Part shown: piece after piece, positions 13,272-27,431 of the stretch
Layout: every line of letters begins with the position of its first letter
How positions within the stretch are numbered: position 1 is the first letter of the stretch
Assembly (NCBI RefSeq): GCF_041248615.1
Contig: NZ_CP158426.1
DNA from: Escherichia coli
Lineage (GTDB): Bacteria > Pseudomonadota > Gammaproteobacteria > Enterobacterales > Enterobacteriaceae
Length of the DNA stretch: 64,000 nucleotides
Strand: one strand, 5' to 3'
Program-made: the position numbers and the translations under genes
The notes under the pieces: model-generated
The model's input: only the letters and a program-made list of their open reading frames with translations
The model's database searches: none
What the model was told of the DNA's origin: nothing

Positions 13272-15185
13272 TTACTTACGACCTGCCAGCAGTTCCAGCA
13301 CTTCATCCACGCTGGTGGTGTGTGCCAGACGTTCGATGACGGACTCATCATCCAGTGCATTGGTCAGGCTGGTGATAACCTGAATGTGCTCGTTGTTACG
13401 GGCAGCAATACCAATTACCAGACGGGCAATGTCATCTTCTTCTTCACCGAAGCGCACGCCTTCCGGGTACTGGCAGAACACCACGCCCGTTTTCAGTACG
13501 CGATCTTTCGCTTCAACCGTACCGTGCGGCACCGCGATAGACTCACCCAGATAAGTCGGGGTCAGTTTTTCACGATCCAGCATCGCCTGAACGTATTCTG
13601 GCTCAACGTAACCGCCTTTCACCAGCTGCTCGCCAGCAAAACGAATCGCTTCTTCTTTGGTGGCCGCTTTGCGACCGAGGAAGATGTTCTCCGCGCCTAG
13701 CTTGAACAGGTTAGCACTGGAATCGTCAAAGCTGTCTTTCAGACTGTCTTTCACTTTCACTTCGTTTTCAGTATGGCGCTGAGCAGCAACCAGACGTTCG
13801 GTCAGGCTGGTGTACAGGCCGCTGTCGAGGAAGTTGGTCAGCGAAATATGCTGTGCCTGCGGAACCTGGCGCATAGCGCGTTCGGTCAGGTCACGGTGAG
13901 TGATGACCAGGTCCACATCTGGCGGCAGGTTGTTGATCGCGCTGTTAGTAACAGAAATCTGCGACAGACCTGCATCCTGAATTTTCTTACGCAGCACACC
14001 TGCGCCCATCGCACTGGAACCCATACCGGCATCACAGGCAACGATGATTTTACGTACGTGGCTCAGGTCGTTAGTCACATCGCCTGCAGACAGCGGAGAC
14101 GCACCTTTAGACTCAGCTTTCATGTCCTGCATACGACGAGTTGCTGCTTCAATATCATCTTCTTCTTTCACTTTGCTGGTTTTCAGCAGAATGGCAGAGA
14201 CAACGAAGGAGACAGCCATCGCCGCACACACACCCGCGATGTTAGCGAAGTATGCACCTTTTGGTGTCATCGCCAGTACAGCAAGGATAGAGCCCGGAGA
14301 TGCCGGAGAAACCAGACCACCGCCCAGGATAGTCAGCGTGAACACGCCAGTCATACCACCGAGGATAACGGCCAGAATCAGACGCGGATTCATCAGCACA
14401 TACGGGAAGTAGATTTCGTGGATACCGCCCAGGAAGTGGATGATTGCCGCACCGCCCGCAGACTGTTTAGCGCTACCACGACCAAAGAACATGTACGCCA
14501 GCAGCACGCCCATACCCGGACCTGGGTTAGCTTCAATCAGGAAGAAGATGGATTTACCCAGTTCATGGGACTGCTGAATGCCCAGCGGCGAGAAGATACC
14601 GTGGTTAATGGCGTTGTTGAGGAACAGGATTTTCGCCGGTTCAACAAAGATAGACGCCAGCGGCAGCATGTCATGGACAACCATGAAGTTAACGCCCGCA
14701 GCCAGCATTTTGGACAGGGCTTCAACAATCGGGCCAATGCCGAGGAATGCCAGAATAGCGAGGATCATCCCGATGATGCCTGCGGAGAAGTTATTCACCA
14801 GCATCTCAAAACCGGATTTGATCTTACCGTCTACCCAGCGGTCGAAGTGCTTAATGCACCAGCCGCCCAGCGGACCTGCAATCATAGAACCGAGGAACAT
14901 CGGCATGTCTGCGCCGACGATAACGCCCATGGTGGTAATGGCACCGACTACGCCGCCACGTTCGCCGCCTACCAGCTTACCACCGGTATAACCGATCAGC
15001 AGCGGCAGGAGATAAGTGATCATCGGCCCGACCAGCTTCGCCAGCGTTTCGTTCGGTAACCACCCTGTTGGAATAAATAACGCGGTGATGATACCCCACG
15101 CGATAAACGCGCCGATATTTGGCATCACCATGTTGCTGAGGAAACGACCAAAGCTTTGCACTTTGATCTTAATATCGGATGACAT
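13272..15185 (-). CDS. mtlA: PTS mannitol-specific EIICBA component
   Basis: 637-aa [30 protein letters not shown]...; EIIC membrane domain with C-terminal EIIB/EIIA. Confidence 0.96.
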
Positions 15186-15328
15186 AAAAACACCCCTTCT
15201 TATGTTTGCTGTCGCGCAGGCTGGAAGCCCGAGGTTTTTTGTTAATGTGGCGGCAGAGGTAGCCGGACCTTGTAGATACTGCGAAATCTGGCACTGAATC
15301 GGTTAACTGTCCAGTCGACGGCCTTTTG

Positions 15329-15505
15329 TGTGATATCAGTCACATAAATATAGGGGGTAGAGAGGTAATTGACGTGATGCTCATCACAAAACTCTTGTGT
15401 AAAAAAGCAACAAGGCGGCGATTTTCGCTAAAAATGGCATTTAAATGTGAGTGATGTCACATTTTTGTTTTGATGGTTTGTTGAATTTTTGTGATCTGAA
15501 TCACA
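15329..15505. promoter_or_regulatory. mtl operon promoter region with an array of CRP-type sites (TGTGA-N6-TCACA)
   Basis: Three perfect sites: tgtgatatcagtcaca (15329-15344), tgtgagtgatgtcaca (15446-15461), tgtgatctgaatcaca (15490-15505); one near-perfect, cgtgatgctcatcaca (15373-15388). All upstream of mtlA on the minus strand. Confidence 0.6.
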
Positions 15506-15721
15506 AGATATTTTCTTACGGCGTTCACCTGATGTGATCTACAGCATGTTATGCCTTCGTCATGAAATCGTTATGTAACTAAGCAACTCATCACCTCTTA
15601 AAATTATTCTTTGGTGTTATGGCGAGAATCGCGAACCCGGATTATTGTCAAAATATCAGCCTGACTCCCTTCTGGCTGCCAGCCAAAAAACAACACCGAT
15701 AAACGTGAATCCGAGGCAGAT

Positions 15722-16084
15722 ATGTTTCTAAACTATTTCGCGTTGGGAGTGCTGATCTTCGTCTTTCTGGTGATTTTTTATGGAATCATCGCGATACATG
15801 ACATCCCTTATCTGATTGCCAAAAAGCGCAACCATCCCCATGCCGACGCTATTCATACGGCGGGCTGGGTGAGCCTGTTTACTCTACATGTTATCTGGCC
15901 GTTCCTGTGGATCTGGGCGACGCTCTATCAACCGGAGCGCGGCTGGGGCATGCAGTCACATGTTGCGTCGCAAGAGAAAGCGACTGACCCGGAAATCGCC
16001 GCACTTTCTGACCGAATTTCCCGGCTGGAGCATCAACTCGCCGCCGAGAAAAAGACTGACTATTCCACGTTCCCGGAGATCTAA
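15722..16084 (+). CDS. yibI: small inner-membrane protein YibI
   Basis: 120-aa ORF with N-terminal TM segment; 2 bp before yibH. Confidence 0.82.
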
Positions 16085-16086
16085 AT

Positions 16087-17223
16087 ATGGATCTATTGAT
16101 TGTTTTAACTTACGTGGCGCTGGCGTGGGCGGTCTTTAAAATCTTCCGCATTCCGGTGAATCAGTGGACGCTGGCGACGGCGGCGCTGGGAGGCGTGTTT
16201 CTGGTGAGTGGTTTGATTTTGTTGATGAACTACAACCACCCTTACACTTTTACCGCGCAAAAGGCAGTGATAGCGATCCCCATCACGCCACAGGTGACGG
16301 GAATTGTTACTGAAGTCACTGACAAGAATAATCAGCTTATTCAAAAGGGCGAGGTGCTTTTTAAACTCGACCCGGTTCGTTACCAGGCGCGAGTTGACAG
16401 ACTTCAGGCTGACCTGATGACGGCGACGCATAATATAAAGACGCTGCGCGCGCAGCTCTCTGAAGCGCAGGCCAACACCACCCAGGTTTCAGCGGAGCGC
16501 GACCGTCTGTTTAAAAATTATCAACGTTATCTGAAAGGCAGCCAGGCGGCGGTGAATCCGTTCTCGGAACGTGACATCGACGATGCGCGGCAAAACTTCC
16601 TCGCGCAGGACGCGCTGGTGAAAGGCTCGGTGGCGGAGCAGGCGCAGATCCAGAGCCAGCTCGACAGTATGGTTAACGGCGAGCAATCGCAGATTGTGAG
16701 CTTAAGAGCGCAACTTACTGAAGCAAAATATAACCTTGAGCAGACTGTCATTCGCGCGCCGAGCAATGGCTACGTTACTCAGGTACTGATCCGCCCAGGT
16801 ACATACGCAGCTGCCTTGCCGTTGCGTCCGGTGATGGTTTTCATCCCCGAGCAAAAACGGCAAATTGTCGCCCAATTTCGGCAAAACTCGCTGTTACGTC
16901 TGAAACCCGGCGATGATGCGGAAGTGGTGTTTAACGCGCTACCTGGGCAGGTGTTCCACGGCAAACTGACTAGCATTTTACCTGTCGTGCCAGGCGGTTC
17001 TTATCAGGCGCAGGGGGTATTGCAATCATTAACGGTCGTGCCCGGCACGGACGGTGTGCTGGGAACCATTGAACTGGACCCTAACGATGATATCGATGCC
17101 TTACCCGACGGCATCTACGCCCAGGTGGCGGTTTACTCCGACCATTTCAGCCATGTTTCGGTGATGCGGAAAGTGCTGCTAAGAATGACCAGCTGGATGC
17201 ATTATCTTTATTTGGATCATTGA
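16087..17223 (+). CDS. yibH: HlyD-family membrane fusion-like protein YibH
   Basis: 378-aa ORF with N-terminal TM segment, long coiled-coil and beta-barrel region typical of HlyD/EmrA-like proteins. Confidence 0.88.
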
Positions 17224-17680
17224 GGGGGGCGGGGGAGATTATGGAACTTTGCTCCCTGCAAGGACTAATTATTTTTGCATATTATTTCATCGGCTGTGAT
17301 GATTTTTCGTTAATATCCATTATGTTAAGAAGTTCGGGATGAGTGTGAACTCATTGGATTTTTTATCCGTCTTGATCTGCCGAAGGATCAGACTATACAT
17401 TGTCGAGATCGCAATGATGATATGAGTTGTTCCTCTGCCACGGCTCTAATCAAAAAAGAGCAGGAGTGCTTTTCCATCTATTGCGATGATGGCTTTATTA
17501 TCTGAAGGATGACAGTCACATTTAAAAATATTTAATTTATAGATCACAATGTAGGTTCATGTAATATATGTATACAACTATTTTTCTCTTCACTTTTAAT
17601 TATCGTATTCATTATAACACTAAGTTAAAAAAACTCCTGGAGAGTGAGTTATTAATATGTTTTTAAATATAATTAAGTTA

Positions 17681-18202
17681 TTATTCATCGATGCATTTTA
17701 TAGAATCATCAATGGCTACAATAGTACTATTAACTCTCCAATTTATATTTTTATTATCATTGCAAATATTAACTGAATCTATATCAATGATTTTTTTATT
17801 TTTATCTTTTATTTTGTTTACAGTTTCAATGCAATCAGCGACAAGTTGGTGTGGATTTAGATTCTTCAGATATGGTCTTATGATCTTTCCCTTGCTTAAT
17901 AAATAGCATGTATAGGATTCGGAAAGTCCAGCATCTATTTTGTACATCATTATTCTAGATAAGGATGTGAGAAATGCCTTGTTATCATTAGCAGCCATAT
18001 ATGCCAGTCCGAGTTCAGCCTCTGCGGCTTTACATGAAAAATAGCTAAGTGAACACGCTTTTCGTCCCTCTTGGGTACTGGCTGATATTAGTGCCCATAA
18101 TATTGCCTTGTCTGCCAAATCCAACTCTCTCTGAAATTGGTTTACAGTAACTGCATTCGCAGAAATAGAGAAGAAAAGCACAATTGTTAATAACCTTGTC
18201 AT
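17681..18202 (-). CDS. secreted hypothetical protein (Sec signal peptide); candidate periplasmic immunity protein of an orphan toxin module
   Basis: 173-aa ORF MTRLLTIVLFFSISANA|VTV...; AT-rich coding sequence; sits 4 bp downstream of the LDT-like ORF on the same strand. Confidence 0.45.
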   Translation of the reverse strand: MTRLLTIVLFFSISANAVTVNQFQRELDLADKAILWALISASTQEGRKACSLSYFSCKAAEAELGLAYMAANDNKAFLTSLSRIMMYKIDAGLSESYTCYLLSKGKIIRPYLKNLNPHQLVADCIETVNKIKDKNKKIIDIDSVNICNDNKNINWRVNSTIVAIDDSIKCIDE

Positions 18203-18206
18203 ATTT

Positions 18207-18482
18207 CTAGTCCGTCACTGTTAATGTGCTATCTGGCTCTGAAAATATTAGCTCATTTAATTTTTGCATGTCATTAGATGAACCAGTTATACAACCCTCG
18301 GAACAGAATCGAGGTCCTAAAGATGGACCAAAAGCGTTTAAACAACTATGTGTTAAAAATCCATCACGATTATACGTTTCTGTATTTGCTGACGGTACTA
18401 AACGTATACCATTAGGTTTTCTATTGGTTGCTCCAGGACTGTTAAGCAAGCCTCGTCCGGTTTGCTTCATTGAGTTCTCCAC
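18207..18482 (-). CDS. short ORF with L,D-transpeptidase-like catalytic motif (H-x16-S-x-G-C); candidate orphan toxin fragment
   Basis: 91-aa ORF with GTG start; ...LTHSCLNAFGPSLGPRFCSEGCITG... fits the YkuD H...[S/T]-x-G-C spacing. An overlapping 108-aa plus-strand ORF (18226..18552) cannot be excluded. Confidence 0.3.
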   Translation of the reverse strand: MENSMKQTGRGLLNSPGATNRKPNGIRLVPSANTETYNRDGFLTHSCLNAFGPSLGPRFCSEGCITGSSNDMQKLNELIFSEPDSTLTVTD

Positions 18483-18570
18483 TTTAGACTATTGGACTAT
18501 CTTTCAACATGGCATCGCCTTAGTATACCGCTGGTTTTCCGCTCATTGTTAATTTTCTCTTTCGTTCATT

Positions 18571-18981
18571 TCACTTAATTTTCAGTTTTTTCCAAAAGTC
18601 AATATTCCCTTCTAATAAAATTTTTTCTATGGAATCTTCATTAATTTTATTATTAGAGCATATGACATTATCTTGAACGCCATATGACACCACCCCGTTT
18701 TTATCAATATAATATCTGTCTTTACCATCAATAATATAAATCCTAACATTTTTATCATCAAAATGGTAACACTCATTACTAGACCTGTTCAGTAACATTA
18801 ATAACTTCTCACGATTTATCTGTAATAATTTTTGTGCACCATCTTTTATTGCAAAATTTTCAATTTTACTTTTAGTGACAGGGGAATATGTTTGGATGCG
18901 AAAAGGCATCCTATAATGGAAAACATCAGCTATACAGCAAGATGAAAAAAATACGGAAATAAAATACAGACATACTTTCAT
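18571..18981 (-). CDS. hypothetical protein immediately downstream of the rhs toxin tip; candidate cognate immunity protein
   Basis: 136-aa AT-rich ORF MKVCLYFISVFFSSCCIADV... with hydrophobic N-terminus; 57 bp after the rhs stop, the canonical immunity position. Confidence 0.5.
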   Translation of the reverse strand: MKVCLYFISVFFSSCCIADVFHYRMPFRIQTYSPVTKSKIENFAIKDGAQKLLQINREKLLMLLNRSSNECYHFDDKNVRIYIIDGKDRYYIDKNGVVSYGVQDNVICSNNKINEDSIEKILLEGNIDFWKKLKIK

Positions 18982-19038
18982 ACCATCTCCTAAACTGGTG
19001 ATATATTAAAAACATACCCAAAAGCAATATAAAAATGT

Positions 19039-21140
19039 TTAATATTTCATTCTTGCTGGCAAGCCCAACTCTTTACGAAATGGGTTTTCATATTTATCAA
19101 CATTAGCCATCGAGTCAGTTCCATCGTCTTTCATTCCCTTTGCATGCCCCATTTCATGCGCAAGAACCACACTCAACAGAGTGGGTTTCATGGCACATGC
19201 TTTGTTTTTTCCTTGATATACACATGAGCTATGGTCGTTATCAATATCAATGTAAAAACTATATTCAGTATCATCGTAGCATGTTTGGTTTATGCCTTTT
19301 CTTAATCCTCTAAATATATATTCATGCTCTGATGACTCTAATTCTTCTGTTATTTTATGTCCAAACTTTGTTTCTGCTACAGCTTTATATGCTTCTTTTA
19401 AAGTTTTTTGTGTACTTTCATCTCCCTGAAAAGACACTTTTAACCCTAATGGATCGAAACCAGATACCGGATTCAACGGATACTGATAAAAATTCCATCC
19501 CCCCTTAAGCCCAATCGGATCCTGAGTGATATACCGCCCCTGCAGCGGGTCATAATAGCGGTGGCGGTTGTAATAGAGGCCGGACTCCTCATCATACTGC
19601 TGACCCGGCAGGCGGATGAGCTGCTGCAGCTGGTGCGGGTTCTCTTCATTCAGCAGGTTGCCCCATTCATCGTATTCTGCGCACCATTCTGTTGCCCCTT
19701 CCGTGCTGACAAGCGCCAGCGGCAGGCCGCGATGGTCGCAGTGGTACAGGTGGATTTTTCGCGCCGGCGTGTACACCGGGTCCATCTGGTTTTGTATCTG
19801 CTCCACCGTCAGGCCGCACGATGCCAGCCAGCGGCGGCTTTCCTCACTCACCCGGTCAGCCAGGATTTCACTTTCCAGCCGGTCGAGCATCTGCACCAGC
19901 ACCGGCGGGAACACCACACTGCCACCGTCTTCACCGCCGGACTGCTGAAGCGCATCCGCCAGGCTGCGGCGCTGCGTTTTCGCCAGCTCACCGGTGGCAG
20001 TTTCAACTCTGATGAGTGGCGTGAAGCTCCCCGGCTGATAAACCGTCTGGATGCGGGTTCTGTCGTTCTGTATTGTGGTCAGCCGGTCGCCGTCCCAGCC
20101 GTACCAGGTCACTTCCGGTTTCCGTGACAGCGACATCCAGCCCGTCAGGTCCCGTTCACGCCGCCACACCCGTTTTGCCACCCTGCGGCCCAGCGGGTCG
20201 TAAAGATAGCGACTTTCGACCAGCGGCTCTGCATATTGTGTCCGCGTGTAGTGCACCAGCCGGTGCCGGCTGTCGTAATGGTACCGGTGAGTCCGCTCAT
20301 CATCCGTGCGGATAACCCCTTCCGGGATGAGGTCGGTTTTCTCCGTCAGCCTGCCGTGACGGTCATACCGGTAAAGATAGTGCGCGTCACGGGCGATACG
20401 GTTATCCGGCCACATGCTGAGGGTGCTGTCCGGGTGCAGCTCCGGGTCGGGCAGGCGGTTACCTGCCGGGTCCGTGGCATACGGGATGCGGATATCCAGA
20501 TTCGCTGCGGTGGTGTGGACGCCGGTCAGCCTGCCGGTGTCGCTGTAGCTGTAACTCCGGGTCTGGCGCGGGCTGCTGATGCGGATGAGTTCGCCGTTGT
20601 CGTTCCAGGTGTAATCGCGGTCATACTGCAGGCTGTTCAGGTGCTGGCTCTGTAACTGCCCGGCAGAGGTGTAAGCGGTGGTGAGTTCATAACGGCCGAA
20701 GCTGCGCAGCGTTTCCCGGTGCAGGCGGTCGCGGGTGTACTCCACCAGCGGTGTGTCGCCGAGTTTCATGCCTGACAGCCAGCCGCTGCCGTAGGTCAGC
20801 CATTCCACGGCGGGCAGGCTGTCCGGTATACAGCGGTTCGCCAGTCCCTGCGCGTTGTACGCATGTCTGGTTTCATGCTGCCAGAGCAGTGCTTCCGTCT
20901 GCGGGTGATGCACCGTCTGGCGCTCACCGGTCAGGCGGCCTTTCTCATCATACCCGTAATGCACCGTCACCCGGTGGCCTTCGCTGAGATGGCTGATTTG
21001 TGTCAGCCAGCCGCGTTCGTCGTACCGCCACTGTTCTGCGGTTTCACCATTCACCGTTCGCTGTGTGATGCGGTCTGCTTCGTCATAGTGCCAGTGGGTG
21101 ACCAGCCCCTCATCCTCGCTGCGGTGCGTATTACCGTGAA
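19039..21140 (-). pseudogene. rhs C-terminal segment: YD-repeat core end (…DPIGL…DPLGL) plus HExxH metallopeptidase-like toxin tip; separated from the rest of rhs by an IS21-family insertion
   Basis: ORF 19039..21159; Rhs YD repeats; core-end motif [39 protein letters not shown], then ~130-aa AT-rich tail containing [12 protein letters not shown]. Confidence 0.8.
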
Positions 21141-21209
21141 GGAGATCGGTGAGTAACATCGATGGAGATCGGTTCGTGTCACTTTCACAGAACCGTTTTT
21201 AAATTACCT

Positions 21210-21959
21210 TCACTGATCTCCTTCGGTCAACGGAGATTGTATTTTCCGCATTGATTCTCCTTTAAGTTCGATCTTGATACTGCCATGAACCAGTCGATCT
21301 AGGATGGCATCCGCATGTGTGGAGTCTCCGATCATTTTGTACCAGTTTTCCACCGGCAACTGGCTCACTACGATGATTGAGCCTCGTTGGTACATCAGAT
21401 CCACTATTTCCAGCAGGTCGCTACGCTGTTCTGATGAGAGAGGTTCCAGCCCCCAGTCATCCAGAAGCAGCAGATCGCTATTATTCAGCCTGGTCAAAAG
21501 TTTGCTGTATCTTCCATCAGCATGCCCCTGATAGCACTGTTCCATCAGCGCTTTAAGGCGATAATAGTAGACCTTGTATCCCTGTCGGCAGGCATTATGA
21601 CCAAGTGCACATGCCAGGAACGTTTTACCGCTGCCGGTGGCCCCGGTCAGTAAAATATTTTGTTTCAGGGTTAACCAGTTTCCCTGACTGAGTGAACGGA
21701 TGAGGGCCCTGTCCAGCCCTCTATTGTTACGATAATCCAGCTTTGATAACTCAGCATTAAGTCTGAACCGTGCATGTTTGATCAGACGCTCTGCCTTCCT
21801 GTTTTCACGGCAGGTTAGTTCTTCTGCTGTCAGTAATGACAGGCGTTCTTCGAAGCCCAGCTCCTGGTATGTGCCCGGCTGAGCAAGTTGCTTTTTAAGC
21901 GCATCACGGAAGCCGGTGAGTTTAAGTGCGGTCAGTTGTTCGTAAAGATGATTCATCAT
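21210..21959 (-). CDS. istB: IS21-family helper ATPase IstB
   Basis: 249-aa ORF with Walker A GATGSGKT and DnaC-like AAA+ fold signature. Confidence 0.9.
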   Translation of the reverse strand: MMNHLYEQLTALKLTGFRDALKKQLAQPGTYQELGFEERLSLLTAEELTCRENRKAERLIKHARFRLNAELSKLDYRNNRGLDRALIRSLSQGNWLTLKQNILLTGATGSGKTFLACALGHNACRQGYKVYYYRLKALMEQCYQGHADGRYSKLLTRLNNSDLLLLDDWGLEPLSSEQRSDLLEIVDLMYQRGSIIVVSQLPVENWYKMIGDSTHADAILDRLVHGSIKIELKGESMRKIQSPLTEGDQ

Positions 21960-21970
21960 TGGATCCCGTA

Positions 21971-23512
21971 TCAGTGGTAATACTCACTGCCGCGTACGTT
22001 TTCGTGTTCCATCGTGGATAACAGATCTGGTTTTGGATCCTGAACAGGTTGTTTATCCAGACCTTTTTCCAGGATCGATTTAATACCTGACAGACGCCAT
22101 ACCTTTGTTTTCAGAGCTCTTGCACATGCTGCATTAAGTCTGGCTTTACTGTATTTTTTATGAAGGTTCAGGAGTCCAAGGCAGAAGCGATAGCTTTGTT
22201 CCGGATGTGGACGAGAGTTCAGTATATGAAGCACATAACTATGAGTTTCACTGCCTATGTGCCCCGCCCATTCCAGAAGACGCTCTGGCGTCCAGGTGGC
22301 ATGCTGTCGATGAGCTTCAGGCATGTGCTCGTTGCGGGTACTGTAGCCATAAGTACGCTTGCGCGGGTGCACAGCAACCTCCTGCCCCTGATTGAAGAGT
22401 CTTACCAGTTCTCCGGAGATCCATGCTTCCAGTTGCTGGCCTAACAGCGAACATGGAACCGAGTAGTAATGTTTGTCGATTTCCACGTGGTAATCGGCAT
22501 GAACTCTGACTTTCTTCACCAGGGTGTAACTGTAACTGGCTTCAGGAAGAGGCTTCAGTGCGGGTTTATCAAGCTGGATGAAGAGTTCTGCACGTGAATA
22601 ACCCAACTTCTGCATTATTTTGTTATTCAGTCTTTCCAGCAACTCCCGAATGCGCTGATTAAGCGATGCAAGGCTGTAGAAGATCTCATGCCTGATTCGG
22701 GCCATGATCCAGCGTTCAACAACCTGAACGCCAACTTCAGCTTTGGCTTTATCTTTCGGTTTACGTGGCCGCGCAGGCAAAACTGCGACATTATAATGCT
22801 CAAGCATCTGCTGGTAGGTAGGGTTAACGTCAGGATCATACTTACATGCCCTGGATGTGGCGCTTTTCAGATTGTCCGGAACAACAAGTTCAGGAACGCC
22901 ACCCAACCACTGGAAGCAGCGAACATGACTCATCACCCAGTCTTCAAGCTGCTGAGACCAGGTGGCCTCTGCCCATGTGTAACTTGATGCCCCGAGAACA
23001 GCTACGATGACCTGAGCAGTTCTTATTTCTCCGGTCTCAGGGTCGGTAACGCCAACGGTAGGTCCACAGTAATCAACGAAAAGTTTTTCGCCAGCTTTAT
23101 GTACCTGACGCATTGATGGTGAAGTGGTTTTGAGCCATTCACGGTACATCCGGCAGTAATGGTTATAGCTGTAAAAACCGCCTGGATTACGCTCACAGTA
23201 TTCTTCCCAGAGTAGCTGCAGCGTCACGCATTTATTACGCAGTTCCCGGTGTACTGTAGCCCAGTCAGGCAGAGAGTGCTTCTTCATCTTAACCTGGGTC
23301 TGAAGGAACGCATGTTTTAGTTTTGTATCATCCCATCCTGTAGGTAAGGGCCACTGCTTTATGCCAAGTTGAGCCGCCCGATTAGCATATCTGGATACAA
23401 CGGAAGGGGAGATTGCAAGACTACGACCAATTTGTCGATGGCTGAGTCCAACACCGTATTTAAGCCTAAGAATTTCTTTAAGTTTTCTCATAGAAATTGG
23501 AACTGTTGGCAT
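21971..23512 (-). CDS. istA: IS21-family transposase IstA
   Basis: 513-aa ORF with N-terminal HTH and integrase-type DDE core; immediately upstream of istB. Confidence 0.9.
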   Translation of the reverse strand: MPTVPISMRKLKEILRLKYGVGLSHRQIGRSLAISPSVVSRYANRAAQLGIKQWPLPTGWDDTKLKHAFLQTQVKMKKHSLPDWATVHRELRNKCVTLQLLWEEYCERNPGGFYSYNHYCRMYREWLKTTSPSMRQVHKAGEKLFVDYCGPTVGVTDPETGEIRTAQVIVAVLGASSYTWAEATWSQQLEDWVMSHVRCFQWLGGVPELVVPDNLKSATSRACKYDPDVNPTYQQMLEHYNVAVLPARPRKPKDKAKAEVGVQVVERWIMARIRHEIFYSLASLNQRIRELLERLNNKIMQKLGYSRAELFIQLDKPALKPLPEASYSYTLVKKVRVHADYHVEIDKHYYSVPCSLLGQQLEAWISGELVRLFNQGQEVAVHPRKRTYGYSTRNEHMPEAHRQHATWTPERLLEWAGHIGSETHSYVLHILNSRPHPEQSYRFCLGLLNLHKKYSKARLNAACARALKTKVWRLSGIKSILEKGLDKQPVQDPKPDLLSTMEHENVRGSEYYH

Positions 23513-23693
23513 AGGTATCCTTTACCGGAATGGCAAAAGATACAGATCAACACACCTGTGAAGTTCCAATAACATTGATGGAGATCACTGAATAACAAAA
23601 TGAGTCAAAAGTGATCTCCATCGATGTTATTCAGCGATCTGTTCAAATGTTATTACCCGATCTCGATGGAAGTTATTGAGTGATCTCCTTTCA

Positions 23694-24723
23694 TGAAAAT
23701 ACGCACTGCGGATAAGTTTACCGGTCAGGTCGTGGTGATAACGCTGTGTGCGGCCGTCAAAGCCGGTTTCCTGTATCAGCCGGTCGAGTACATCGTAACG
23801 GAAGGTGGTGTGGCTGCCGTTTTCACTGGTCAGGCGGATGACCCGTCCGGCAGCATCGTATTCCATACTGCGCGTCAGACCGCCCTGTGTGGTACGGATG
23901 GCCTTTCCCCACGCATCGTACTGTGTCCCGTTTCTGCTGCCGTCCGGGGCAATGACGGCGGTCAGGTCACCGGCGGCGTTGTATTCATACCGCGTTTCAT
24001 GGCCCTGCGTGTCTTTCACCGCAATTAACTGTCCACGGCTGTCGTATGCGCGGTACTGACTCAGCCCTTCCTCGCGGTGCACCGCCGTCACCTGACCAAA
24101 ACGGTCATGGTCATAACGGGTTACATAACCGGAACAGTCAGTGACGGTCAGCAACTGACCGTAACGGCTCCATGTCATGGTTTTCCGGCTGCCGGTGGCA
24201 TCTTCCGTTGCGCAGGGTAAGTCACTGTGTGGATTATCATAACGGTAGCGGGTGATATCGCCGTTGTGTGCGGTTTCCTGAATCAGACGGCCGGATTCAT
24301 CATATTCCCGGCGCAATTCCAGCCCGTCAGGCCCGGTGGCTGACGTTAACTGGCTGTGGTGGTTATAGTAAAATGCCGATGCCCTGCCATCCGGTGTGGT
24401 GATGCGCGTGATGAGTCCCGTCACCACATCCGGGCTGTACTCAGTCGTCCGGCCTGCGGCATCCGTCTGTGCCTTAAGCCTGCCCACCGCGTCAAACTGA
24501 CTCTGCGTGACGCTGCCGTCCGCGTGTTCCTTTTTCACCACCCGCTTCAGCCCGCCTTCGCCCTGCGTGTGCAGCACTTCACGGCGGTCCAGGCTGTCGG
24601 TGATGGTGATGTGGTCTTTCTCATACTGATACGTGTAGCTTAAGCCTGCCGGGTTTAGCTGTTCTGTCACCCGCCCGTCACTGTCGTAACGGTAACGGAT
24701 TTCCGGCCGGCCCGTGTGACGGT
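23694..24723 (-). pseudogene. rhs middle segment (YD-repeat region) lying between the two IS insertions
   Basis: ORF 23627..24670 with repeated YD/RYxYD motifs (…RYRYDNPH…YVTRYDHDRFGQ…YEYNAAGDL…); frame continues upstream to the IS3-family boundary. Confidence 0.8.
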
Positions 24724-25478
<755 letters not shown>

Positions 25479-25582
25479 ATCAGCATACTTGTCCTTAGCC
25501 TTCTGCAGTGACAGCTGGTAGTACAGCGTGCTTCTGGCCAGCCCTGCAGCCTTTAACAGGTCAGACTGGCAGTGTCCGCACC

Positions 25583-26113
25583 TCAGGCTCCGGATGACTT
25601 TCGTTTTTTCTCCAGCTCCTGGCGCTTTTTTTCCAGGAGATGCTCCTGCATGGCTTTCAGATATGCATTTTCTGCGCGAAGATAACGCAGCTCATTCTTC
25701 ATCTCTTCCGGCGTCATGTTTGCCTCGTTTTCATGGGTATCATCAGAACGGGTCATGCTTTTCTCCTTCCTGCGCCTGATAAAGGCCTCATTACCAGATT
25801 TGCGGTAGCCTTTTATCCAGTTTTTAACCGTGTTGTGGCTGGGAATGTTAAACCGGGCAGCTACCCGGGGTAGAGACTCAGAATGCCCGAGAGCATAAAG
25901 AACCACGCAAAGTTTATCTTCAGGAGAATAGCTACGCTTGTGTCTGCAATCCAGTGCCCGAGGACCGTGAAGAAGAAAAAGATTAATCCAGTGTGAGAGG
26001 CTGGTGTGAGAAAGTTGAAAGAGTTTTGCCGTAGAAATGATGCCTGTATGACCAGCCAGGTAATGATTTACAGCGGCAAGTTTTACTTCAAATGAATGTT
26101 TCATAAACTGCAC
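25583..26113 (-). CDS. IS3-family transposase OrfA (HTH)
   Basis: 176-aa ORF with HTH region and leucine-zipper-like C-terminus; contains A-AAA-AAG slippery heptamer near its 3' end. Confidence 0.85.
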   Translation of the reverse strand: MQFMKHSFEVKLAAVNHYLAGHTGIISTAKLFQLSHTSLSHWINLFLLHGPRALDCRHKRSYSPEDKLCVVLYALGHSESLPRVAARFNIPSHNTVKNWIKGYRKSGNEAFIRRRKEKSMTRSDDTHENEANMTPEEMKNELRYLRAENAYLKAMQEHLLEKKRQELEKKRKSSGA

Positions 26114-26155
26114 CTTCAGATGTCAGATTATGTCCAACATTTGGGGTGCAGTTCA

Positions 26156-27203
26156 GGTGCGCCACCATCCGGCCCCGGTATTTATCATCGTAAGTAAAGC
26201 TGCGCACCTGTGTATTGCTGCGGTCATACACCGCCGCCAGTTCGCCGCGTGGCGTCCAGCCATAGCGCACCAGCGGCGCGGCAGGTAAATTCTCCGGGTA
26301 TTCCGGGTCGTGCGTCAGCCACACGGCAGACAGACGGATGCCGTTGTCCCGGCCATATTCGGTGTAACCCGGCAGGGTATCAGGAAAAACGGACGGTTCC
26401 ATCCCGCCGGAAATGGCCTGCTGCCGGGCTTCTTCTGCCCGCTGCGCCTGCGTGGTCAGTACCAGCCGGAAGTGACGCCCGGCACCATCCGTCACGCCGG
26501 TGATTTCGCCGCTGAATTCGCCGCCAGCCTCACGGTGGAACGTCTGTGTGCGCCCGAAGCGGTCCACCAGCCCGGTCAGTACCCGGTACGGCGGCAGCGG
26601 CGCAGGCAGCACCTCATCCGCCTCCGGCACCCGCTCACACCAGCCGAGTACCCACCACGGCCCCTGCGGACTGTTCGTCGCCAGATAACGATGCGGACTC
26701 AGGCGAAGCTCTTCCGGCAGCGCCTGCCAGAGTGCGGCCAGCCGGTGACCTTCATCCAGTTTCGCCACGCCGCCGCGCACCAGCCAGAGTGACTCGCTGC
26801 GGCTGTAACCGTCCTCACCGGGAAACAGGTGCTCAAAATACAGGCTTCTGCCGCCGTTATCACTGAGTATCAGTGTGTTATCGCGCAGCTGTAAGCGGAT
26901 ATCCGCAGGCATTTTCCAGCCGGGGCCGAGGCTCCCCACCGGCGCGGGCGTTTTTGTCCGGTAACTGCTGTAGGTGCGGGAGAGGATGAACGGCAGCGGG
27001 CCGGGCAGGGCAAGGTCGGTTTCGCCGGGAAGGACCTTCGCGCCGAGCAGCGGATTGACCGGATGGCCGGACGTCACCCCGCCGGGGCACACCGAACAGG
27101 CCACGCCGGTGGGGGCACCGATGCGCACCCCGGCTGAACCCTGGACAATGCTACCGCCATACTGCGTCATGTCGCCCTGACGCGCCGCCGGTTTTCCGCT
27201 CAT
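26156..27203 (-). pseudogene. rhsA: rhs N-terminal segment (PAAR-like N-terminus), truncated by the IS3-family insertion
   Basis: Starts MSGKPAARQGDMTQYGGSIVQGSAGVRIGAPTGVACSVCPGG..., the conserved Rhs N-terminus; divergent from yibF as recalled for rhsA; reading frame runs into the IS. Confidence 0.82.
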
Positions 27204-27431
27204 CTGCTCATCCTTGTTTTATCGGGTTATTTGTCTGCTGACAGGCGAAACCCTACAGATTTATAAGAAAGCCTTAAGTGAGATATCTGTCAAATAAGAA
27301 CAATTAGGAAAATATTTATATCACCATGATAAATATGTGATTTATTGGGAAGTAACAAACCATCAACATTTTCTGCCCTTTTTCCCATCACCAGGCCATA
27401 CTGATATTTTTCCTCGCACAAAGGACTCGGC

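Follow-up and report, generated by a model that had tools for sequence, protein, structure and literature searches.

Locus organization and base composition

The stretch of DNA analysed here (the window; 64,000 nucleotides of the Escherichia coli contig NZ_CP158426.1) covers the mtlA-yibI-yibH / rhs / yibF-selA region of this species, in which the rhs gene lies on the minus strand with its 3′ end towards yibH. Our subject is the AT-rich block of 2208 bp (17224..19431) that lies between the yibH stop codon and the conserved part of rhs. From yibH towards rhs it holds the left end of an accessory Rhs element, a transposase fossil, a spacer, an intact gene of the Imm57 family, the remnant of a Tlde1-like toxin tip, a short flank, a 136-aa open reading frame (ORF) here called imm136, and a toxin tip of the Peptidase_M91 family. 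Further to the left are yibH itself (16087..17223, plus strand; 53.1 % GC) and mtlA (13272..15185, minus strand).

A sequence-only reading of this region had described a sharp compositional break across the interval, and the break is real. The G+C content of 17224..19431 is 33.6 %, compared with 0.531 in yibH, 0.620 in the rhs core (19500..21100) and 0.511 in the whole window. Among all 2208-bp windows of the 64 kb (mean 0.512, SD 0.040) the interval falls about 4.4 standard deviations below the mean; 0.19 % of such windows reach a G+C content this low, every one of them on this locus, and the minimum of 0.332 starts at 17236. A three-segment maximum-likelihood fit places breakpoints at 17265 and 19494 (segment G+C contents 0.533, 0.332 and 0.619), offset by 41 and 63 bp from the limits that had been read by eye, and both transitions finish within about 100 bp. 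Codon usage departs in the same direction: G+C at third codon positions (GC3) is 0.26–0.29 in the four ORFs of the block and 0.57–0.74 in flanking genes, and an index resembling the codon adaptation index (CAI), with 12 housekeeping genes from the same 64 kb as its reference set, is 0.46–0.61 in the block and 0.66–0.78 in its neighbours.

ORF sequence makes up about 73 % of the interval, and in first-order Markov simulations of it (n=2000) an ORF of at least 173 aa arose with P=0.004 and a second one of at least 136 aa in none of the 2000. The composition is uneven inside the block, from 40.5 % GC at 17288..17519 to 19.9 % in the adjoining spacer at 17520..17680. An Rfam scan of 15000..21500 (E≤1) returned two chance snoRNA-like matches, both within rhs, and no RNA element that would explain the block. 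Promoter-like sites (12, with 11.5 expected) and terminator-like sites (2, with 1.4 expected) gave no usable signal for independent promoters of the immunity genes. We note that the mtlA–yibI intergenic region (15300..15750) is likewise AT-rich, at about 39 % GC, and is probably the mtlA regulatory region.

The rhs gene itself is broken. The end of its core (19441..19524, minus strand) carries DPIGL at 19521..19507 and the demarcating motif PxxxxDPxGL at 19470..19441, a motif described by Poole et al. (2011; PMC3150448) that separates conserved Rhs core from variable tip. Similarity to other rhs genes resumes at 19466 (K-12 rhsA) and 19463 (rhsB of strain MMC-J-0085), near the composition break at 19494. 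Next comes the 3′ fragment of the GC-rich (62 %) core (19525..21124, minus strand), which aligns to the rhs gene of strain CFSAN061763 and is called a pseudogene by the Prokaryotic Genome Annotation Pipeline (PGAP). The ORF at 19039..21159 matches the Pfam families RHS_repeat (E=5.6e-17) and RHS (PF03527, E=9.4e-15), and the intact 1380-aa rhs product of CFSAN061763 scores 222 bits with RHS_repeat. The 5′ side of the fragment is cut by ISEc12 (21125..23705, minus strand; IS21 family, istA/istB), which has a 6-bp target duplication. Beyond it are a middle fragment of rhs (23706..24723, minus strand), IS1397 (24724..26155, minus strand; IS3 family, 3-bp target duplication) and the rhs 5′ fragment (26156..27391, minus strand), which encodes the N-terminal DUF6531 domain in an ORF ending at 27203 and includes the upstream sequence to the right end of the element. 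The ISEc12/rhs junction was found in one (NRZ14408, NZ_LT599825.1) of the 5426 complete E. coli genomes that form the basis of all our population comparisons; the closely related CFSAN061763 has ISEc12 near yibL instead. Since rhs is split by ISEc12 and IS1397, the toxin can no longer be made as part of an Rhs protein, and in this strain at most the two intact immunity genes can still work.

The accessory Rhs element and the two halves of its tail

The GC-rich rhs core, with which the AT-rich DNA had been contrasted, turns out in the population comparison not to be core genome: in 1522 of the 5426 genomes the site is empty, with about 70 bp between yibH and yibF, and therefore the whole Rhs element, its GC-rich core included, is accessory. 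In an alignment with the empty site of E. coli Nissle (EcN; positions 601..670 of locus L017), homology on the left stops at ...ATCATTGAG, 1–2 nt beyond the yibH stop codon, and is found again on the right from about 40 nt upstream of the start codon (ATG) of yibF; the element, with its 62 % GC core, spans about 17225..27391. It is an accessory island by its presence/absence polymorphism, its precise empty site and its atypical G+C content (33.6 % in the tail and 62 % in the core, with 51 % in the whole window). Its left end, directly after the yibH stop codon (17224..17287, plus strand; 43.8 % GC), contains a terminator-like hairpin at 17247..17263, as judged by a consensus scan.

The sequence-only reading had further proposed that the interval as a whole was an exchanged toxin/immunity cassette and the variable part of the locus. 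This is true of 18438..19462, which comprises the M91 tip, imm136 and a 133-bp 3′ flank and is an all-or-none segment: 18440..19495 is present in 180 genomes, in all of them at ≥99.8 % identity and with no intermediates, and the 133-bp flank has the same distribution. It is not true of the yibH-proximal half, 17224..18437 (1214 bp), which is present in 3726 genomes including K-12, mostly at 92–93 % identity, and which we refer to as the orphan block. The homology junctions of the cassette lie at 18434–18439 and 19463–19466; a repeat search of the sequence returned short matches at chance level only, with no direct or inverted repeats flanking the cassette as a mark of mobility. Low G+C content alone thus does not tell which part of an rhs locus is variable, since the conserved orphan layer is equally AT-rich.

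Identity to K-12 is 98–99 % in mtlA, yibI and yibH (98.6–98.8 % for yibH and yibI) and drops to 92–93.5 % precisely at the stop codon of yibH. Two diverged alleles of the orphan block occur, with a synonymous divergence (dS) of 0.17–0.22 (window positions 17224..18437 compared with 9001..10214 of the K-12 locus). Taken together, the drop in identity and the divergence of the alleles indicate that the orphan block has a history of its own. Tip/immunity pairs at this locus differ among K-12, O157, MMC-J-0085 and E105. K-12 carries rhsA/yibA and yibJ/yibG in that order and O157 carries rhs/yibG, and in both strains a fragment in which Imm57 is frameshifted comes next; the series in MMC-J-0085 is rhsB/yhhH, yibA, ISEc1, Tlde1 and Imm57. 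E105 (positions 5306..10010 of locus L022) has a single full-length rhs whose own tip is Tlde1-like, with Imm57 directly after it, both being pseudogenes there, and this is presumed to be the ancestral layout of the locus.

The 457 bp next to yibH had been described as a non-coding stretch, a description that does not hold for about half of it, which is the fossil of a transposase gene of the ISAs1 family (H-repeat, ISEc1-like) with an in-frame stop (17288..17519, minus strand; 40.5 % GC). When the 378-aa ISEc1 transposase of MMC-J-0085 was compared with it by tblastn, residues 96–160 matched at 60 % identity (E=5e-23); the DNA is 79.5 % identical to ISEc1 over 234 bp, and there is a weak match to the Pfam family DDE_Tnp_1 (E=0.037). 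It is not an intact ISAs1/H-repeat element, since no more than residues 96–160 of the transposase remain and these are interrupted by the stop, and about 3700 E. coli genomes, K-12 among them, have kept it. Between the fossil and the Imm57 stop codon is the AT-rich spacer (17520..17680; 161 bp, 19.9 % GC), which has no ORF, Rfam match or terminator and no promoter signal above chance, and which is conserved along with the orphan block.

Toxin tips and candidate immunity genes

The variable tip of the broken rhs gene is a C-terminal domain of 133 aa (19039..19440, minus strand). Searched in isolation against Pfam, it matches Peptidase_M91 (PF14891) with 31.6 bits, the gathering cut-off being 25, and it contains the sequence HEMGH (H95, E96 and H99), E118-N119 and R130..Y133. 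A word-indexed homologue search with the tip found the E. coli cluster only, and an exhaustive search of representatives was needed for the others; it yielded 104 homologous clusters, in which the M91 domain is invariably at the extreme C-terminus, often right behind DPxGL, also where the carrier protein is 1400–2500 aa long (up to 2482 aa). Across 44 homologues H95, E96, H99, D105, N119 and R130 are invariant, and E118, P120 and Y133 are nearly so. The ratio of nonsynonymous to synonymous substitutions (dN/dS) of the tip is 0.27, and the domain is thus under purifying selection.

An AlphaFold2 model of the tip (predicted local distance difference test, pLDDT, 96) has a zincin fold, and its fold matches are the botulinum neurotoxin light chain, GtgA and NleC; sequence and profile searches of solved structures with the tip gave metzincin matches at the level of the HExxH motif only. 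The Tox-HopH1 family has been defined by the motifs HExxH and [DE]N, includes NleD and was assigned no immunity protein (Zhang et al., 2012; PMC3482391). Judged by these resemblances the tip belongs to Peptidase_M91 / Tox-HopH1, as a minimal zincin with NleD and botulinum light chain among its relatives, and it is predicted to be a zinc-dependent endopeptidase. We considered D105 as the third zinc ligand, as in the metzincin pattern HExxHxxGxxD, but this is disfavoured by the fold match to botulinum light chain and GtgA and by the [DE]N motif of Zhang et al.; we favour E118 of the ENP motif as the predicted ligand.

Fifty-seven base pairs beyond the tip gene lies imm136 (18571..18981, minus strand; 136 aa), which has a strong AGGAG Shine–Dalgarno sequence 5 nt upstream of its ATG and is annotated by PGAP as hypothetical (WP_000861664.1). 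Pfam and NCBIfam searches with its product found no family. Its homologues form 34 clusters, confined to the Enterobacterales and all annotated as hypothetical, and they recur in the same position: directly 3′ of a diverged M91 tip in a food metagenome (59 % identity for the tip, 43 % for the putative immunity protein), directly 3′ of an M91 tip in Rahnella (45 % and 30 %), with a start codon overlapping the stop codon of the M91 tip in Salmonella, and directly after M91 tips in Hafniaceae, as partly decayed copies. These related tips and immunity genes have 28–39 % GC in flanking host DNA of 53–54 % GC. In Escherichia albertii a lone orphan homologue (67 % protein identity) stands last in another rhs array, beside yafV-like, ivy and fadE-like genes, with a second, weakly matching M91-like tip remnant upstream of it (35 % identity, E=3e-4); the stretches concerned are 6001..6417 and 2261..2404 of loci L004/L005. 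Compared with E. albertii, imm136 has a dN/dS of 0.28. Because synteny is conserved, tip and neighbour diverge together and the gene is under purifying selection, we infer that imm136 is the cognate immunity gene of the M91 tip.

Every member of the imm136 family starts with a hydrophobic segment, behind which stands C-x-A or V-L-A. The conserved cysteine raised the possibility of a lipoprotein, which we rejected, as the residues at −3 to −1 do not fit a lipobox and a signal peptidase I site at C-x-A fits the family better.

The 3′ flank of the cassette (18438..18570, minus strand) follows imm136. It supplies two starts, the ATG of a GGAG-N6-ATG (position 18470) and a GTG (position 18482), to a chimeric ORF of 87 or 91 aa; in the longer form (18482..18207) the first 15 codons come from the flank, and from about 18437 onwards the ORF consists of the last 77 codons of a Tlde1-like tip. 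In about 50 other E. coli genomes, RHS genes contain a stretch that weakly matches part of the flank (75 % identity); the flank may be a piece left over from the donor array. The 77 codons (18207..18437, minus strand) are the 3′ remnant of a Tlde1-like / Tox-LD-peptidase Rhs tip that has lost the N-terminus of its domain and all Rhs sequence, and their homology to K-12 and MMC-J-0085 begins at about 18437. The remnant scores 20.0 bits with the Pfam family Tlde1_dom (cut-off 30.1) over profile positions 66–107 of 120, and the complete 135-aa allele of MMC-J-0085 scores 34.2 bits over positions 10–106; as the score is under the cut-off and the profile only partly covered, the window holds a remnant and not a member of the family. 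The catalytic motif of Tlde1, whose enzyme type targets peptidoglycan, is H-x14-17-(S/T)HGC (PMC9638812); the remnant reads H-x15-SEGC, a motif of the catalytic type with Glu instead of the second His.

Four nucleotides past the stop codon of the 91-aa ORF begins an intact orphan Imm57 gene (17681..18202, minus strand; 173 aa), annotated by PGAP as 'Imm57 family immunity protein' (WP_000197506.1). Its product matches Pfam PF15596 with 150.7 bits (cut-off 25; E=1.4e-44) over profile positions 2–100 of 100, and Zhang et al. (2012; PMC3482391) list Imm57 as the partner of Tox-LD-peptidase. By eye and from its hydropathy, MTRLLTIVLFFSISANA at the N-terminus resembles a Sec signal peptide. The K-12-type allele is frameshifted in K-12, O157:H7 and FDAARGOS_433, and the allele of the window is intact; dN/dS between the two types is 0.29. 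The small ORFs of the interval had been considered credible as acquired genes, and for annotation purposes the 136-aa and 173-aa immunity genes are indeed real, as is apparent from their synteny, their dN/dS and the Imm57 score; the 91-aa chimera, like the transposase fossil, is debris.

Elsewhere in the window, upstream of the mtl operon, is a 1439-aa ORF (4968..9287, minus strand), with 9331..10014 (minus strand) beside it. In related strains the counterpart of the 1439-aa ORF is annotated as a trimeric autotransporter of the YadA-like / EhaG kind, and its neighbour there is a DUF3251 gene. In CFSAN061763 a copy of ISEc12 lies beside the region that corresponds to 4968..10014.

Assembly of the block and comparison with known systems

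We consider it very probable that the block is the layered 3′ end of an optional RhsA element between yibH and yibF, in which toxin/immunity layers have been stacked by C-terminal displacement. The oldest layer would be the original rhs tip, a Tlde1-like LD-peptidase domain with a periplasmic Imm57, together with a decayed H-repeat and the element's boundary at the yibH stop codon. A newer layer would have arisen in one lineage, about 3 % of the complete genomes, when a foreign cassette of about 1.0 kb replaced the sequence from about 19463 to about 18437, recombining in at the end of the core that codes for PxxxxDPxGL and at an arbitrary point within the previous tip. This displacement would have left the older immunity gene and the toxin stub as an orphan, and the cassette would have brought in the M91 tip with its own exported immunity protein. 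In an intact relative such as CFSAN061763, homology suggests that the Rhs shell would enclose the tip, that autoproteolysis after DPLGL would release it and that it would be delivered into neighbouring bacteria. There the M91 protease would act on an envelope or periplasmic protein, a site of action suggested by the signal peptide of imm136, and imm136 would block the protease in that compartment by binding it; as both immunity proteins look exported, both toxins may act in the periplasm. The surviving imm136 and Imm57 may still protect against kin with tips of the M91 or Tlde1 type.

Other explanations of the composition fare less well. It is exceedingly improbable that the break is a sampling artefact or the ordinary AT bias of intergenic DNA, since that bias, as exemplified by the 39 % GC of the mtlA–yibI spacer, would have to account for the lowest value anywhere in the 64 kb, 4.4 SD under the mean, in DNA that is about 73 % ORF and has a GC3 of 0.26–0.29. 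A single, recent and often-exchanged toxin/immunity cassette of 2.2 kb, forming the one variable part of the locus, would agree with the low G+C content that runs across the whole interval and with the fall in identity to K-12 at the yibH stop codon, which gives even the conserved half a history separate from that of its flank; this too is very unlikely, however, for the first 1214 bp occur in 3726 of the genomes and the rest in 180, a sharp homology junction lies inside an ORF at about 18437, and the yibH-proximal half is made up of remnants, namely a truncated tip and a transposase fossil. Somewhat less remote, although still quite unlikely, is decay, by which relaxed selection and AT-biased mutation, and neither foreign origin nor a trait of the cassettes, would have made the DNA AT-rich. 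The block does contain non-functional parts (the H-repeat fossil, the remnant of Tlde1 and the spacer of 19.9 % GC), and several strains, K-12 and O157 among them, have a frameshift in Imm57. Against decay, the intact ORFs under purifying selection (dN/dS 0.27–0.29) are those with the lowest GC3, AT-richness is just as marked in the intact homologous cassettes of Salmonella, Rahnella and Hafniaceae, the two alleles of the orphan block are about 0.2 dS apart with the same G+C content (34.3 % and 33.8 %), and the transposase fossil, at 40.5 % GC, is close to the intact ISEc1 transposase gene at 41.8 %. Because G+C content is lowest in intact ORFs under purifying selection, it is not a product of decay; it is a trait that these cassettes carry in every host examined. 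AT-rich acquired DNA is expected to be silenced by H-NS, and the block may be silenced in the same way.

A further question concerns the target of the M91 tip, which might be an anti-eukaryotic effector like NleD, GtgA and HopH1, the downstream ORF then being no immunity gene. Its closest named relatives and fold matches are indeed host-directed proteases (NleD/HopH1; botulinum neurotoxin, GtgA and NleC), and a Salmonella survey of 2026 places Tox-HopH1 among the anti-eukaryotic effectors (PMC12994826). We nevertheless regard such a role as unlikely, given that a small ORF with a signal-peptide-like N-terminus is coupled to the tip and diverges with it in five hosts, that E. albertii retains a lone orphan under purifying selection, as would be expected of an immunity gene, and that a prokaryotic target has been predicted for the Salmonella homologue (PMC8867033). 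We incline, by a little more than an even chance, to the view that the 136-aa ORF represents an undescribed signal-peptide-bearing immunity family that is restricted to the Enterobacterales and specific for Tox-HopH1/M91 Rhs tips. If this pairing is real, minimal zincins of the NleD/botulinum-light-chain type would be antibacterial and would cut a specific periplasmic or envelope protein, a departure from the role given to Tox-HopH1 in the Salmonella survey. If confirmed, it would also provide an experimental handle on the target of an NleD-like protease in bacterial competition and would explain the retention of imm136 in E. coli like sequence type 38 (ST38) and in E. albertii.

Several observations weigh against the displacement scheme or against the functions that we attach to it, beginning with the placing of Tox-HopH1 in the survey just cited. 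The left junction at about 18437 lacks extended homology, which bears on the mode of insertion. As to a vector, the cassette had no match in the phage collection, and in the plasmid collection it matched only two small Salmonella records, at 72–73 % identity over the tip region. As to delivery, no PAAR domain of Pfam was matched at E≤1e-3 in the full-length Rhs homologue, the N-terminus of which is DUF6531, and no vgrG adjoins rhs. The whole 706-aa ORF scores 21.0 bits with PF14891, under the cut-off that the isolated tip exceeds. The AlphaFold2 model of imm136, built with six close homologues, has a pLDDT of 51, too poor for a fold search, and its export rests on an N-terminus that looks like a Sec signal peptide by eye and by hydropathy. 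Toxicity of the tip and its neutralisation by imm136 are predictions.

Among systems that have been studied, VgrG2b and PA0261, like Tpe1 and Tpi1, illustrate the logic that may apply to the M91 tip and imm136. [quoted passage not shown] These pairs would be functional analogues, and fold and structure searches with the M91 tip detected no homology to metallopeptidases of the VgrG2b/Tpe1 type.

A closer counterpart is encoded by SPI-19, a Salmonella pathogenicity island, in Salmonella Dublin, where SED_RS06335 is a predicted PAAR-RHS-Peptidase_M91 effector and SED_RS06340 its putative immunity protein (PMC8867033). SED_RS06335 and the ORF downstream of it appear, from the similarities of their products, to be members of the toxin and immunity families that include the M91 tip and imm136: the tip family is the same, HExxH lies at the C-terminus of an Rhs protein, and the small downstream ORF has an N-terminal hydrophobic segment. 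The Salmonella imm136 homologues P0119 (156 aa) and P0133 (110 aa) sit directly after M91 tips. The two systems differ in that the immunity proteins share only about 45–53 % identity and that the E. coli Rhs shows no PAAR at the same threshold and has no T6SS cluster around it.

The older layer resembles Tlde1/Tldi1 of Salmonella, a T6SS effector like an LD-transpeptidase, in that the family of the orphan tip is Tlde1_dom, as its full-length allele attests. The Imm57 gene stands behind the orphan tip as in the Tox-LD-peptidase/Imm57 pair (PMC3482391), and the signal-peptide-like N-terminus of Imm57 agrees with a toxin that would target peptidoglycan. Unlike Tlde1, the present copy is 5′-truncated, with a score of 20 bits, reads SEGC and not (S/T)HGC, and derives from a fused Rhs tip and not from a stand-alone effector.

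The nearest known arrangement is the RhsA locus of K-12 (rhsA-yibA, yibJ-yibG and the yibV/yibU region), which occupies the same site between yibH and yibF. Both loci have a GC-rich YD-repeat core that ends at PxxxxDPxGL, an AT-rich variable tip, a small immunity ORF, displaced older tip/immunity modules downstream, associated H-repeat (ISAs1) sequence and a terminal module of Tlde1 remnant and Imm57, which is about 93 % identical between them. The current pair, M91 and imm136, is on the other hand unrelated to rhsA-CT/yibA and yibJ/yibG; Imm57 is intact here and frameshifted in K-12; rhs is broken here by ISEc12 and IS1397; and the orphan has no core homology at all, so that it cannot recombine back onto rhs. 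Rhs C-terminal displacement and orphan modules were reportedly described by Jackson and colleagues in 2009. The model of C-terminal displacement with orphan modules has been set out for Rhs elements by Poole et al. (2011; PMC3150448). The architecture seen here is the classic and well-known one, an ordinary textbook case that adds little biologically apart from the M91/imm136 lead, and its sole mildly new element is an unnamed, signal-peptide-bearing putative immunity family paired with M91/Tox-HopH1 tips.

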